NCBI GenBank assembly: GCA_964016885.1
Contig: OZ024742.1
Span: 277,946,001-278,010,000, forward strand
Length of the DNA stretch: 64,000 nt
Reading direction: 5' to 3'
DNA from: Eledone cirrhosa
Lineage: Eukaryota
Shown here: one piece after another, positions 2,653 to 62,132 of the stretch
Layout of the letters: every line of letters starts with the position of its first letter
Position numbering within the stretch: the first letter of the stretch is position 1
Made by a program: the position numbers and the translations under genes
The notes under the pieces: generated by a model
Database searches by the model: none
The model's input: only the letters and a program-made list of their open reading frames with translations
What the model was told of the DNA's origin: nothing

Positions 2653-2849
2653 ATAGATGAGATTCTACAGGACTAGAACTGTTTCATTCATTAGAAATCA
2701 TCAGGAATCATCAGGAGATTCCTGATGATTTCTAATGAATGAAACAGTTCTAGTCCTGTAGAATCTCATCTATATTAAAACTGTTATACTCTGCTATGTA
2801 TTGAGTACCTTACTTACTGTGGTTACCTCCGATTCAACCCGGATAACGT
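2653..2849. mobile_element. Fold-back PLE pLTR fragment with hammerhead-like core
   Basis: 2653-2709 is the reverse complement of 2718-2774, and the right arm extends to 2849. Contains CTGATGA-tttc-taat-gaat-GAAAC. Same family at 45751-45886 (-) and 62896-62960 (+). Confidence 0.75.
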
Positions 2850-3044
2850 ATATATATATATATATATATATATATATATATATATATATATATATATATA
2901 TATATATATTTATCTCTTTATATCTCCCCCCTCTCTCTCTTCCTCTCTATCCCTCCCTCCCACTATGATCAATTTAATTCTCTTTAACTCACTACATTCC
3001 ACGACATGAGGTCTGCTATCAAAACTAACCAAGGAATCCTTCCA

Positions 3045-3760
3045 TGTGGCAAATTCAAAAGAATTAATCACGTGACATCGAGGTCAATCAGTGGGGAGTG
3101 GTTTGTTAAGAAGGCAGCAGCCGGACTGTTACTATAGCAGCAGTTTTGGCCAATTTTTGCTCGACAAATAATTAGTTGGGAGTGAAATTTTAGTAAGTAA
3201 GTTAATTTTATAATTTTCTTATTTTACGTCTCTCATATTATTGGTCTGCAACCCCATGCATTGAACCACAAAGTTACTAAGACAAAACCTATATATTTGC
3301 TAGCATAAGTATGCATCTATGTATATATATGTTACTAGATATACTAATTCTTTCTAATTATCTCCAAATTATTTGTCGAGCAAAAATTGGCCAAAACTTC
3401 TGCTATAGTAACAGTACGGCTGCTGTCTTCTTAACAAACCACTCTCCACTGATTGACCTCGATGTCACGTGATTAATTCTTTTGAATTTGCCACCGACGC
3501 AGTAGGCAGTGATTTTCTCAATGGCTTGGAATTTAGTCCACGCTTTGCTTTTTCCATCCACTGAATTATTTTTGTATAAGTTCCATGTGTCCACGTATTG
3601 CCTGGAAACTTAGCTGAGAATAGACTTCCCTGATGACGAAAGGCTTCTCTGTACGCTTCTTCGGAAAGTATGTTTATTCCCTTTCAGAAACTAATTAGTT
3701 GGGAGTGAAATTTTAGTAAGTAAGTTAATCTTATAATTTTCTTATTTTACGTCTCTCATA
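3045..3760. mobile_element. Rearranged PLE pLTR-type insertion
   Basis: 3045-3172 is inverted relative to 3367-3494. 3170-3237 is directly repeated at 3694-3760. Ends in (TA)n. Confidence 0.65.
3624..3706 (+). ncRNA. Type I hammerhead ribozyme motif
   Basis: acttcc-CTGATGA-cgaaagg...cctttca-GAAA-CTAATTAG(palindrome)-TT-gggagt. All three stems pair; predicted cleavage triplet GUU. Confidence 0.75.
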
Positions 3761-4039
3761 TATATATATATATATATATATATATATATATATATATATA
3801 TATATATATATATATATATATGTGTGTGTGTGTGGTGTGCGTGTGTATATATATGTGTGGGTGTATATATGTGTGTGTGTGTGTATATATGTGCGTGTGT
3901 GTATATATATATATATGTATATATGTATGTGTGTGTGTGTATTTATATATATATATATATATATATATATATATATATATATATATATATATATATATAT
4001 ATATATGTGTGTGTGTGTGTGTGTGTATGTGAATGTATC

Positions 4040-4510
4040 TGTTGACACCTGGAATATAGCTTAAGAGAAATATGACAATAATGATATGATAGGCACCCAA
4101 TATTTTGAACTGGTTTATTAGCTTTTAAAGGATTTCCCTTTTCTTTAAATTCACCAACCATGACCGACCCTCAACCATCTTATAGACACCTGAAATATAA
4201 GCATTATTACGGGGTCGATAAAATAAAGTACCAGTAGTGTACTGGGTAATTGCTGGCCTTGTGCCAAAAGTCGAAACAATTATTAGCTCAAGTGAAACTT
4301 AAAAATAAGGAGTGGCACCCCATTCTGAACTTGTTTATAGAATTCTTTCTGCCTTTGTCACTCTAAATATAAATTATAGCCTTAAAGAATTAGCTTTTAA
4401 TGAATTCCCTTTTCTTTCAACCAATGAACTCCACCTATCCCACTCCCCACCCTCTCCTACCATCTGAAAATATATAAATACCACAACATATATTTTTGGA
4501 AAGCCAGTAT
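4040..4510 (+). mobile_element. PLE 3' UTR family with internal ~190-bp tandem duplication, interrupted by a SINE 3' fragment (4205-4283)
   Basis: Homologous to 62478-62960 (+) and 45887-46210 (-). Those copies adjoin the hammerhead family seen at 2720. Confidence 0.6.
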
Positions 4511-4642
4511 TTTTTCTATATTTTACACTCTGTATAGCTCTACACATCATCACAGAAGTGAACCTAAACATCGAGTGCTCATCGGGGTGAACCTGCAGTA
4601 ACTCCTAGTTACACCCACTGGATATATATATATATATATATA

Positions 4643-58794: not shown

Positions 58795-59207
58795 TATGTG
58801 TATATATATATGTGTGTATGTGTGTGTATGTATATATATATATGTGTGTGAATATATATATGTGCATATATATATATATGTATGTATATGTGTGTGTGTA
58901 TGTATGTATGTATATATATATATATATAAATATATATATATATATATATATATATATATATATATATATATGTATATATATATATATATATATATATGTA
59001 TATATATATATATGTATATATATATGTATATATATATATATGTATATATATATATATGTATATATATATATATATATATATATATATATATATATATATG
59101 TATATATATATATATGTATAAATGTATATATATATATATATGTATGTATACATATATATATATATATATATATATATATATATATATATATATATATATA
59201 TATGTAT

Positions 59208-59975
59208 AAATGCGGAAACCCACAGGGCAGACCCTAGGTCACAGTCCTAGCGACTGAACGCAGCATCGGATCCTTAAGGATAAAGGAAGCACTTGTTATT
59301 AAGAACCTCAGACCCCCACTTAACAACCGGGCTGAGAGAAATGAGCTGACATGGCTAATTTAACCATAGTGACCAGTAACAGCCCCTACGGCCTACTATC
59401 TTTCACACACACGCACTTATATGTATACCCATACACATACACACACACATCTATATTTATACACGCACACATGTTTATACAACCTACCACCTTTCACACC
59501 CTTTGATTTCCAGCTTCTACGACCCACTATCTTTCACACACACACACTCACATACATACACACATACACACACAGTTACACACACATATATATTTACACA
59601 CACATATTTTACGGCTTTCACACGCTAGCGCACCCTATTGATTTAACCCAATTGGTCAGTAGATTTTGCCACAGCCTATCACGCGCACGCGCATTCTTTC
59701 CCTCGTTTGAATTTTCCCCATAACGGCATTCCTATGTTTTAACGACAATACAACTTTCCCCGGCTTAGCCCGCCCCCCCCCCCCCCTTTTGGAACTTTCC
59801 CCCGTTGATGGGCGTGAGCCCGAAATATTGGGATTAAATCTCCACTACGGTAACCCTTCTACCTTTGTTTTGTTTTCATTTTCGTTTCTCTCAATTTTCA
59901 CTTTTCTCCTATTTCTCACTCACTTCCTACCTCGAGATTTCCCATCTGCATTGTTGTGGCTTTCTAACTACATAA
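59208..59975 (+). mobile_element. 3' end of a Penelope/Poseidon-like PLE with hammerhead-like motif at 59798-59833
   Basis: Encodes [27 protein letters not shown] (GIY-YIG C-terminus), followed by CCGTTGA-t-GGGC-gtga-GCCC-GAAA-tatt-ggg. Confidence 0.65.
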
Positions 59976-59995
59976 TGTATATATATATATATGTA

Positions 59996-61145
59996 TCATA
60001 AATCATGTCTTTAGAATCATCAGATAAAATAAAAATTATTTCTTCTTCTAATTAGCATAATTAACCATATAAAGAATCAATTAGAACAAGCTATAAGAAT
60101 AAATGCTCTTACTGAGAAATCTCCGACAAATAACCGAACGTAGCCTCTTCGCGGCGGCCTCAATCGAGTTTTATCCAACATTTCGACAGCATGTAGAAAC
60201 TGACTAAATATACCATCAACCATACACAATTAGATGTAAAATTAAACTTAGAAGAAATGCGCACATACCGTAAATATATCTTTACCATGGTTTCTCCCTT
60301 ATTTTTAGACATCCAAATAATAGGAATGTCCTGAGTTAGGATTCATCAGGAGACAAACTCAAAATCAGACATCTAGTTTTTCAATCCGATCCCGCCAAAA
60401 ATAGATTAAAAAATGGCTAAGAATCGCTATGTGGCTGTGGTCAAGCCAGAAAGAATGTGATTGGTTGCTTACAGTGGGTAGGCTTGCTGCTAGAAAGCGC
60501 AGCCAAAAATCGCCAAATTTAATCTCAACCTATTGGGAGATTATTAAATATAAATGTTAACATATATATAAAGTTATAGATATATACATGTTGCAACTGG
60601 TCACTTTTAAGCTCTATGAAGAATTAATAAATTAAAAAAATCAGAGCAATATATCAGAAATCATGTCTTTAGAATCATCAGATAAAATATATACTATTTC
60701 TTCTTCTAATTAGCATAATTAACCATATAAAGAATCAATTAGAACAAGCTATACGAATAAATGCTCTTATGGAGAAATCTCCGACAAATAAACGAACGTA
60801 GCCTCTTCGCGGCGGCCTCAATCGAGTATTTATCAAACATTTCGACAGCATGTAGAAACTGACTAAATATACCATCAATCATACACAATTAGGTGTAAAA
60901 TTAAACTTAGAAGAAGCTACGTTCGGTTATTTGTCGGAGATTTCTCCATAAGAGCATTTATTCTTAAAGCTTGTTCTAATTGATTCTTTATATGGTTAAT
61001 TATGCTAATTAGAAGAAGAAATAGTATATATTTTATCTGATGATTCTAAAGACATGATTTATGATATATTGCTCTGATTTTTTAATTTATTAATTCTTCA
61101 TAGAGCAACATGTATATATCTATAACTTTATATATATGTTAACCT
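59996..61145. repeat. Direct plus inverted repeat cluster
   Basis: 59996-60255 is repeated at 60657-60915; 60916-61145 is the inverse of 60550-60802. Confidence 0.85.
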
Positions 61146-61446
61146 TTATATATATATATGTATATATATATATATATGTATATATATCTGTATATATATG
61201 CGTGTATATATATATATATATATATATATATATATATATATATATATATATATATATATATATATATATGTGTGTATATATATATATATATATATATGTG
61301 TATATATATATGTATATATATGTGTATATATATATATGTATATATATGTGTATATATATATGTATATATATGTGTATATATATATATGTATATATATGTG
61401 TATTATCTATACATATTTATATATACATATATATATATATTTTTTT

Positions 61447-62132
61447 TTAGAATTGGTGCTCTGAAATAGCCATATATATATGAATGTATATATAGTGCAT
61501 TTTGCAATACACTGTATGCTTAATTAAAAGCATTTTGAAGACCGTATGCTATTGTTTTAGAGTAGTGACAGACTCACTTACTTTAATTTCAGCAAACAGG
61601 GGGAGATAAAGCTGACAAGGCCTTGTTTTTGCATTTATTGATGCTTATTGAAGCCAACTACTCCTCCTGTTTGCTGAAATCACGGATGTTTGGTTCTTAT
61701 GTTTGCTGAGATTAAAGTAAGTGAGTCTTTCACTACTCTAAAACAATAGCATAAGGTCTTCAAAATGCTTTTAATTAAGCATAAAGTGTATTGCAAAATG
61801 CACTATATATACATTCATATATATATATCGCTATTTCAGAGCACCAATTCTAATTTTTAATTTCTGCTTGACCAGCAACCGCTCTGTATAATCAGTTCCT
61901 GATTATTTACTAGAATTCTATAAGAACCAAACATCCGTGATTTCAGCAAACAGGAGGAGTAGTTGGCTTTGATAAGCATCAATAAATGCAGAAACAAGGC
62001 ATTGTCAGATTTATCTCTCCTTGTTTGCTGAGATTAAAGTAAGTGAGTCTGTCACTACTCTAAAACAATAGCATAAGGTCTTCAAAATGCTTTTAATTAA
62101 GCATAAAGTGAATTGCAAAATGCACTATATAT
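61447..62132. mobile_element. Multiply inverted PLE pLTR with hammerhead at 61965-62010
   Basis: ggct-TTGATAA-GCAT-caataa-ATGC-a-GAAA-CAAGGC(A/C)TTG-TC-ag(a/c)t. 61447-61700 is inverted against both 61701-61853 and 61919-62132. Confidence 0.75.

Follow-up and report, generated by a model that had tools for sequence, protein, structure and literature searches.

One-tailed fold-back insertions of Penelope-like retrotransposons in (TA)n tracts of Eledone cirrhosa point to two target-primed cDNAs on one RNA

How does a retrotransposon come to lie head to head with a second copy of its own 3' part, when only one of the two copies carries the last stretch of the element? The question is raised by 64 kb of the 3.0-Gb genome assembly of Eledone cirrhosa (G000:C3:277946001-278010000; "the window" below is this whole stretch), an AT-rich sequence in which pure (TA)n makes up 12% of the length. 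Eleven insertions in it, called A to K (Table 1), are inverted repeats with one unequal end. These units are a new and very abundant example of Penelope-like element (PLE) insertions in (TA)n. We consider it probable that each head-to-head pair was made from two target-primed cDNAs on one RNA, the first started at an inner UA/U and the other at a second UA/U 39-137 nt downstream (a slash marks an end-point throughout).

The 11 sites were read, and each segment was then aligned to its reverse complement to measure it. All 11 hold a palindrome with its sense 3' ends outward and an extra 39-137 nt, the tail, on one side only, after which TA resumes. Runs of (TA)n, 11-76 nt long, flank 10 of the 11 on both sides, the exception being D, whose tail side adjoins (CT)n and then (TA)5. 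The two arms of a unit are 85-99.5% identical. Five of the units (C, E, H, I and J) form one family, the main family, and in the window these copies end at TCCTA/TATA on the tail-less side and at GTTA/TATA on the tailed side; B and F are 79% alike and have both ends in common. Solo copies related to A lie at 45720-45886 and 62897-62969, and another copy of G is found at locus L013. The original prediction had described the 11 insertions as outward-facing inverted repeats set almost always in (TA)n, with one arm 40-130 bp shorter and with ends shared within a family (among them those of 4643 and 47983, our B and F), and in the window it proved right on each of these points.

The same ends recur throughout the assembly, where counts are exact-pattern matches and the bases after the arm end were counted by two explicit patterns. 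Of the main family's 18-base arm end there are 19,762 occurrences (none of the reversed-pattern control); TATATA comes next in 9,170 of them and the tail start in 8,748, together 90.7%. After the tail end, TATATA is found in 22,549 cases and the rest of the unit in 313. Arm end-points are thus non-random genome-wide, in keeping with the original prediction. Among the first 100 arm-end occurrences (contig C1, 0-42 Mb), 44 are TA-ended, 48 tail-continued and 8 other. Among them are 26 outward-facing (-,+) pairs, of which 23 are no more than 120 nt apart and 3 are 0.5-1.6 kb apart; in all 26 exactly one arm is TA-ended, its partner being tail-continued in 24 and "other" in 2. A further 18 TA-ended arms appeared single; in 17 the reverse-complement tail stands on the partner side, and the remaining one is a truncated solo copy. 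Two other samples (30 loci each, the best-scoring or first-listed matches) agree. With the arm alone as query, 29 independent fold-backs were obtained, two duplicate rows being dropped and three copies in one segmental duplication counted once; exactly one tail is present in 28 of 28 resolved cases, the other (L069) being complex. With the tail alone as query, the inverted arm bears a tail in 0 of 26. In these three samples one tail per resolved head-to-head pair is a strict rule. L195 (G000:C1:54339600-54340350), the sole pair apparently without a tail, was considered as a symmetric pair and rejected: the tail is present about 40 nt away, and the (TA)n between stands exactly at the inner site, as if a TA run had been copied or expanded there.

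The rule extends to many families. In a family-blind test on 60 arbitrarily placed 10-kb stretches (600 kb), TA-to-TA segments of 60-1,500 nt were examined, and 53 of 278 held a palindrome. Of these, 29 abut TA at one end and stand 25-438 nt from it at the other; 5 abut TA at both ends, 13 are separated from it by at least 25 nt at both, and 6 are arranged otherwise. One of the 5 symmetric cases represents the inner portion of a G-type copy that an internal TA run divides; the other four are terminal inverted repeat (TIR) elements with a unique middle, resembling miniature inverted-repeat transposable elements (MITEs). The 39 asymmetric units from the window and the 600-kb sample fall into 19 sequence clusters, in agreement with the earlier expectation of a rule common to many families. 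The B/F family is also numerous: a 21-mer of the F tail, whose words are too common for a DNA similarity search and which was therefore counted by exact pattern, occurs 6,255 times in the genome.

Where the two ends lie on the RNA can be read from a tandem array (L135) of 3,531-bp units, each with a 717-aa open reading frame (ORF) and with no TA between units. The array reads ...GTTCCTA/TTACCC...(80-nt tail)...CCTTCGTTA/TCTAGC...(90 nt)...ATG, which puts the inner and outer sites 170 and 90 nt upstream of the ATG of the ORF; both are UA/U. Since the tail runs on into the 90-nt leader and the ORF with no TA between, both sites are internal in a multimer RNA, and the earlier proposal that one cDNA starts terminally does not hold. 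Judged from this array, the insertion end-points would be UA/U sites in the leader of a multimer transcript. The second autonomous PLE family has a like order: after its inner site come a 73-nt tail, some 40 nt of further sequence and the ATG. The tail start shares at least 3 nt (TAT.., 3-5 nt) with the TA flank in 20 of 32 elements, which bears out the TAT identity noted earlier. The predicted RNA fold of arm, tail and leader is not clearly better than that of shuffled sequences (z -1.78).

The evidence for two cDNAs comes from copies whose arms do not match. Four loci (L179, L181, L184 and L188) have a complete tail-less arm that begins at its usual start, and their tailed copy goes no further than the tail, stopping at it or within it; at three others (L031, L038 and L040) the tail-less arm is the longer of the two. 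In H one arm spans 352 nt of the element and the other 2.6 kb, and in L136 the arms likewise represent different parts (unit positions 573 and 855). Finally, the pair at 57612-57690, which has a mirror copy in L136, joins an inverted tail ending at the outer site to a sense body ending at the inner site, and the two have no sequence in common. These unequal-arm copies and this pair need a second, independently primed cDNA. Four variants occur among the tail-selected fold-backs in which both arm ends are intact, and in 15 of 15 the variant is the same in the two arms; 5.3 matches would be expected from random pairing, and 15 was reached in 0 of 200,000 permutations. From this agreement we favour the view that both arms would have been copied from the same RNA. 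Sharing one RNA may also bear on the one-tail rule: independent choice of site at each end would make heterotypic pairs at most half of the total, whereas a primer seated at the inner site would leave only the tail free on the same RNA, so that pairs would always be heterotypic, a step that we infer.

Based on these structures, the following course can be envisaged. The putative GIY-YIG nuclease of the element would open both strands of a TA tract. One 3' end would anneal by 2-5 nt to the inner UAU(A) and copy towards the RNA 5' end, giving the tail-less arm, and the other would start at the outer site, copy the tail and then either continue or stall at the occupied RNA. The second cDNA would probably finish by a jump onto the 3' end of the first cDNA and copy back, which would create the head-to-head join and close the break. 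A more far-reaching version, which we offer only tentatively, would make two primers on a single RNA obligatory for PLE integration, with the inner UA/U used on one side, then necessarily the outer site on the other, and the jump onto the first cDNA to follow. If true, it would account for the tail, for copies lying head to head, for junctions that vary and for the preference for (TA)n in at least 19 families, and the more than 10,000 very young insertions in this genome would be a natural read-out of the reaction.

Several points weigh against this account. The order of the two primings, the RNA 5' end and the final jump onto the first cDNA are things that we infer. Palindromes tend to lose sequence from their centre, and one-sided deletions after insertion could mimic some of the unequal arms. 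L136 has an atypical end on one side, and the inverted arm of L033 lacks the usual outer end. Some fold-backs may be copied as units, as the recurrence of the junction CTGG/AATTA in at least 17 loci could indicate. Pfam recognised no domain on the PLE ORFs (RVT_1 scored weakly, E 0.14), a sequence-profile search of PDB with a profile of 28 homologues gave a single chance match and left the ORF unrecognised, and Rfam found no hammerhead at gathering score or at E<=5-10. In addition, Frangieh et al. (2024) saw in vitro no difference in start site between strands, and start sites that were not homologous to the target, as opposed to the strict heterotypy and TA identity described here.

The rival that survives best is a snap-back, in which one cDNA from the outer site would turn at the RNA 5' end, copy itself and leave at the inner site to join the other DNA end. 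It would also yield exactly one tail; the same variant in both arms, 15 times in 15, is what self-copying predicts; and the majority of short fold-backs come close to symmetry and have tiny loops. For the palindromes of PLEs, self-priming was put forward by Arkhipova et al. (2013). A snap-back cannot, however, supply a full tail-less arm where the tailed cDNA never reached the arm, as at the seven loci listed above, nor the pair at 57612-57690 with no shared sequence. Nor can it produce H or L136, in which the inverted arm does not mirror what adjoins the junction; solo tail-less copies (the upstream copy of L046, L191 and the window copy at 867-1112) also speak against it. The original prediction had left the choice between priming from both sides of the break and a snap-back; the first part is supported, and L179, L181, L184, L188, H and L136 speak against the second as a general route. 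Since one-sided deletions can imitate some unequal arms, we rate a snap-back as unlikely and do not put it at zero.

Less probable still is that the fold-back is itself the element, a hairpin-shaped non-autonomous RNA copied end to end with the two "ends" as its termini. The whole 186-nt unit I as query gave 41 near-full-length matches at 95-100% identity (best 40 scored of 2,200 candidates), the CTGG/AATTA junction recurs, and imprecise ends would be masked by the flanking (UA)n. Copying as a whole unit was our first reading of these matches; it was dropped, since copies with identical tails show different junctions. With the tail as query, all 40 scored candidates are 99-100% identical, and 30 loci hold 32 tail-bearing copies: 26 with an inverted tail-less arm, 3 solo, 1 of tail only and 2 long. 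The inverted arm ends at TCCTA/TA in 25 of the 26, L033 being the exception. In these 26 fold-backs, whose tails are 100% identical, nearly all junctions differ, with fillers, T-runs and partial duplications of terminal bases. Because junctions vary from copy to copy, fold-backs must arise anew at each insertion, and because CTGG/AATTA occurs with the tail on either side it points to a hot spot and not to inheritance. Also against a hairpin RNA, solo copies start exactly at the point where the arms would meet (L030, L039 and L047; the three solo tail-bearing copies begin at (T)CCAGAAT directly after TA), and the long copies H, L111 and L136 share the outer ends but have quite different inner junctions. 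The B/F family repeats this picture: of 30 sampled tails, 14 are part of fold-backs with a single tail, whose palindromes span 93-460 nt and whose junctions vary, and 9 of the other 16 copies, which are not fold-backs, reach within a few bases of the same inner point. Around three of the 30 B/F copies (L084, L095, L096) (GA)n takes the place of (TA)n, and the tail is 6-8 nt shorter than usual. At some junctions, T-runs of 18-22 lie between the arms (L019:1215-1240; L183), which look like untemplated addition at the template end.

It is very improbable that the units are MITEs or other TIR DNA transposons aimed at TA dinucleotides. They are short, AT-rich inverted repeats at TA, as are the Tc1/mariner-derived MITEs, and this genome does contain true TIR elements that directly abut TA on both sides (L172, L015, L147, L155; Table 1); MITE termini are symmetric, however, whereas those of the fold-backs are not inverted copies of each other, one carrying the tail that the other lacks, the arms plus tail are the 3' end of an element that encodes a reverse transcriptase (H, L135), and copies show 5' truncation and variable junctions. 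Although the tandem and inverted structures of PLEs are described in parts of Craig et al. (2021) as troublesome for assemblies, false palindromes from assembly or chimeric reads are scarcely credible given the same architecture at thousands of loci on many contigs, arms diverged in old copies (85-94%; 38146-38333), one common junction in the three segmental-duplication copies L074-L076, and exactly one tail per pair, which an artefact would not be expected to give.

H is a 5'-truncated copy of the autonomous element of the main family. Its plus strand has reading frames resembling reverse transcriptase (RT) and GIY-YIG, and the reading frame has 190 homologues of about 700 aa. Many H-type copies are present in the genome, 98% identical, with open frames up to 784-819 aa and in head-to-tail arrays. 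Long main-family copies also occur as outward-facing pairs 1-2 kb apart (e.g. on contigs C4, C2, C9, C1, C28 and C3) and in arrays with a period of 3.53 kb; L111 and L112, tried as full-length copies, are not full length. The 717-aa ORF of L135 contains RLRW, HSDKTGNLY, GGLYRDDGL (YRDDG), CNCPDRSIC (CxCX5C) and, at the C-terminus, NVIYQ...AYIGLT. A structure model of it built with 28 homologues is confident, with a predicted local distance difference test score (pLDDT) of 88.6, and its top match among known structures is the telomerase RT 3du5_A (E 1.3e-8), with 439 matches at E<=0.001, mostly RTs; the model thus predicts a telomerase-like RT fold for the main-family protein. For GIY-YIG, Pfam gave no match in the 717-aa ORF, the C-terminal motifs there having been read from the sequence, while PF01541 (GIY-YIG) is found on 26-50% of the members of look-alike clusters in the Atlas. 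The pseudo-long terminal repeat (pLTR) trait of PLEs is seen in the L135 tandem array and in direct repeats around the ORF in L121 and L119. These last two, with L117, represent the second autonomous family (retrieved with homologue P0001), which has a 709-aa ORF and direct pLTRs.

These features bear on the clade. In the passages of Craig et al. (2021) that define it, Hydra has a single ORF with RT plus GIY-YIG at the C-terminus, a linker CxCX5C where others have CX2-5CxxC, DKT in place of DKG, and an RWK motif, and almost all of its families insert into (TA)n. The main family resembles it in the single ORF with RT and C-terminal GIY-YIG-like motifs, in CxCX5C and DKT, in RW(K/R) (RLRWR in the 717-aa ORF, RWK in homologue P0022) and in the (TA)n target, and would on these motifs and this target fit Hydra and not Nematis, whose marks CX2-5CxxC and DKG are absent from the 717-aa ORF; the earlier label "Nematis-type" is thus probably wrong. 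Some differences from the published descriptions are also apparent. The unit is 3.5 kb long, whereas Hydra elements are given in those passages as generally <3 kb, and tails are quoted there as 30-40 bp, against 39-137 nt here. Hydra is said in the same passages to be without a CCHH motif in its endonuclease, and the corresponding region of the main family carries a C..C..H.H pattern that may or may not be its counterpart.

A further difference concerns the ribozyme: a canonical hammerhead, a trait of PLE pLTRs, was not found by Rfam in the main family, and on the pieces of the window Rfam reported only a tRNA and spurious microRNA-hairpin matches. By eye, complete type-I, three-helix hammerhead-like cores can be recognised in A and in B/F, just upstream of the inner site. 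That of the A sense arm is CTGATGA..GAAAC..GTA, and that of B/F is CTGAAGA..GAAACGATCGTT, with a small palindromic helix III of the kind described for PLE ribozymes in parts of Cervera and de la Pena (2014). A strict script for the motif, which located one in D, scored 2 of the 39 arms on the sense strand and none on the antisense strand, and none of 1,950 shuffles. In the main family (L135:4230-4350; window 55460-55564) UUGAGAA, or UUGAUAA in L043, stands at the place of CUGANGA, and the candidate core goes on through one helix to GAAAC and through another, whose loop is the palindrome GAGCUC, to GUC, which lies 19 nt before the inner site. Hammerhead variants with U3/A8 are able to cleave. 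Although such a view is speculation, the main-family core may be a U3/A8 variant overlooked by Rfam. If the RNA 5' end lay at (A)GUCCAGAAU, about 61 nt before the inner site, it would account for the common inner end of the arms.

Much of the framework is already published. In general, according to passages of Craig et al. (2021), PLEs form tandem and inverted units with an inverted 5'-truncated copy and a tail at one end only. For Penelope of Drosophila and Adineta vaga, the passages of Arkhipova et al. (2013) on pLTRs describe an inverted pLTR beside a direct one, a 31-bp tail on one inverted pLTR and junction palindromes, and favour self-priming, possibly on an antisense template; in contrast to those structures, the copies here include cases that self-priming cannot make. 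The closest parallel is the Poseidon element PAc of Anolis, whose protein cuts and extends both DNA strands in vitro, RT starting at two neighbouring internal sites of a multimer RNA so that the stretch between them is the genomic tail (Frangieh et al. 2024). Extension of both strands, the two-site layout and AT-rich targets are common to both systems. The PAc sites, however, are located within the ORF (111-118 nt in), lack homology to the cut DNA and do not differ between strands, whereas those of the main family lie upstream of the ATG, match the (TA)n target and are used once each per pair. The steps after the two initiations are, in the words of that study, the only biochemical one, still to be validated (Frangieh et al. 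2024).

The inverted copy, the tail, the (TA)n target, two RT start sites, extension of both strands and self-priming are thus in print (Craig et al. 2021; Arkhipova et al. 2013; Frangieh et al. 2024), and the interpretation first placed on this locus is supported only in part, its idea of two strands and two sites not being new. A literature search found no paper treating PLEs under twin priming, only co-mentions in passing as judged from listings, and a search on head-to-head copies, both strands and reverse transcription returned Frangieh et al. (2024) as the one relevant paper. The data set added here is very large and young, and with it come longer tails, identity with TA at the sites, the strict heterotypic rule and the evidence for a shared RNA; the one-tail rule itself is a modest addition. 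The fold-backs can also be set beside human L1. In the twin priming that Ostertag and Kazazian are said to have described in 2001, both 3' ends of a staggered break reportedly prime on one RNA and leave an inverted 5' segment. In L1 the second primer sits at variable internal sites and the segments do not overlap, whereas the fold-backs use a fixed second site and their arms repeat one and the same stretch.

The mode of PLE integration is still open, and tens of thousands of near-identical recent insertions in this genome record its steps in their junctions. Any model would have to meet three constraints: one tail per pair, the same RNA for both arms, and a tailed cDNA that can stop at the inner site. 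For annotation, the units are to be treated as products of PLE insertion and not as MITEs, microRNA hairpins or assembly errors. In Rfam scans by E-value (window 2640-2860 and 55400-56900), fold-backs score as plant or animal microRNA precursors, e.g. MIR2606 at 82 bits, below gathering score, and could be mis-annotated as such.

Table 1. Fold-backs and related features in the window (positions within the window unless a locus is named)
Feature	Position	Strand	Description
Fold-back A	2653..2848	+	palindrome 2653-2774; 74-nt tail 2775-2848
Fold-back B	4644..5145	-	tail 4644-4770; palindrome 4771-5145; family of F
Fold-back C	9757..9912	+	main family; tail-less arm complete; tailed arm internally deleted, then 80-nt tail
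Fold-back D	27472..28215	+	palindrome 27472-28115; tail ~100 nt, to about 28215
Fold-back E	46631..46826	-	main family, E/J subfamily; tail 46631-46708; palindrome 46709-46826
Fold-back F	47984..48548	-	tail 47984-48117; palindrome 48118-48548; arms 99.5% alike
Fold-back G	51197..51535	+	palindrome 51197-51474; 61-nt tail 51475-51535
H	52606..55643	+	main family; 5'-truncated 3-kb copy of the autonomous element; tail 55565-55643; inverted tail-less arm 52606-52956 (352 nt) mirrors 55214-55564, the last 352 nt before the tail
Fold-back I	55664..55851	-	main family; tail 55664-55740; palindrome 55741-55851
Fold-back J	56017..56213	+	main family; palindrome 56017-56140; tail 56141-56213
Fold-back K	56225..56766	+	palindrome 56225-56727; 39-nt tail 56728-56766
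Solo K-type arm	867..1112	+	starts at the loop position of K; tail-less end at (TA)n
Old, diverged main-family fold-back	38146..38333	-	75-80% identical to E and I; tail cut at outer end
Non-palindromic pair, second autonomous PLE family	57612..57690	.	35 nt inverted tail + 45 nt sense body
Complex unit, another family	59991..61146	.	tandem arm-tail-spacer-arm + inverted arm with tail
SINE-like repeat	4207-4285, 8381-8500, 28420-28596, 34088-34270, 34768-34956		also in L022, L025, L093
True TIR element (MITE-like)	L172:945-1207		flush with TA at both ends
True TIR element (MITE-like)	L015:81-409		flush with TA at both ends
True TIR element (MITE-like)	L147:1147-1222		flush with TA at both ends
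True TIR element (MITE-like)	L155:1219-1792		flush with TA at both ends

The window also holds other features. A long interspersed nuclear element (LINE), unrelated to the PLE finding, is present as two head-to-tail copies (11020-15086 and 16820-20887) that are 99.7% identical and whose ORF carries APE, RT and zf-RVT domains. A truncated copy in inverted orientation lies at 21238-22879, and a relative with 78% identity at 30033-33337; Pfam recognised LINE domains (APE and RT) in the 11-23 kb repeats and in those at 30-33 kb. At 41730-45572 stands a 3.8-kb imperfect (TA)n (83% matches) with short non-TA motifs every 17-27 nt and a GC content of about 2%. A tRNA-Asp (GTC) gene lies at 45579-45650, 70 nt from the solo A-type PLE fragment. 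Finally, a repeat resembling a short interspersed nuclear element (SINE; ...ATTGCTGGCCTTGTGCCAAAAGT.GAAACAATTAT) and ending in ATT/TA repeats often adjoins PLE insertions.

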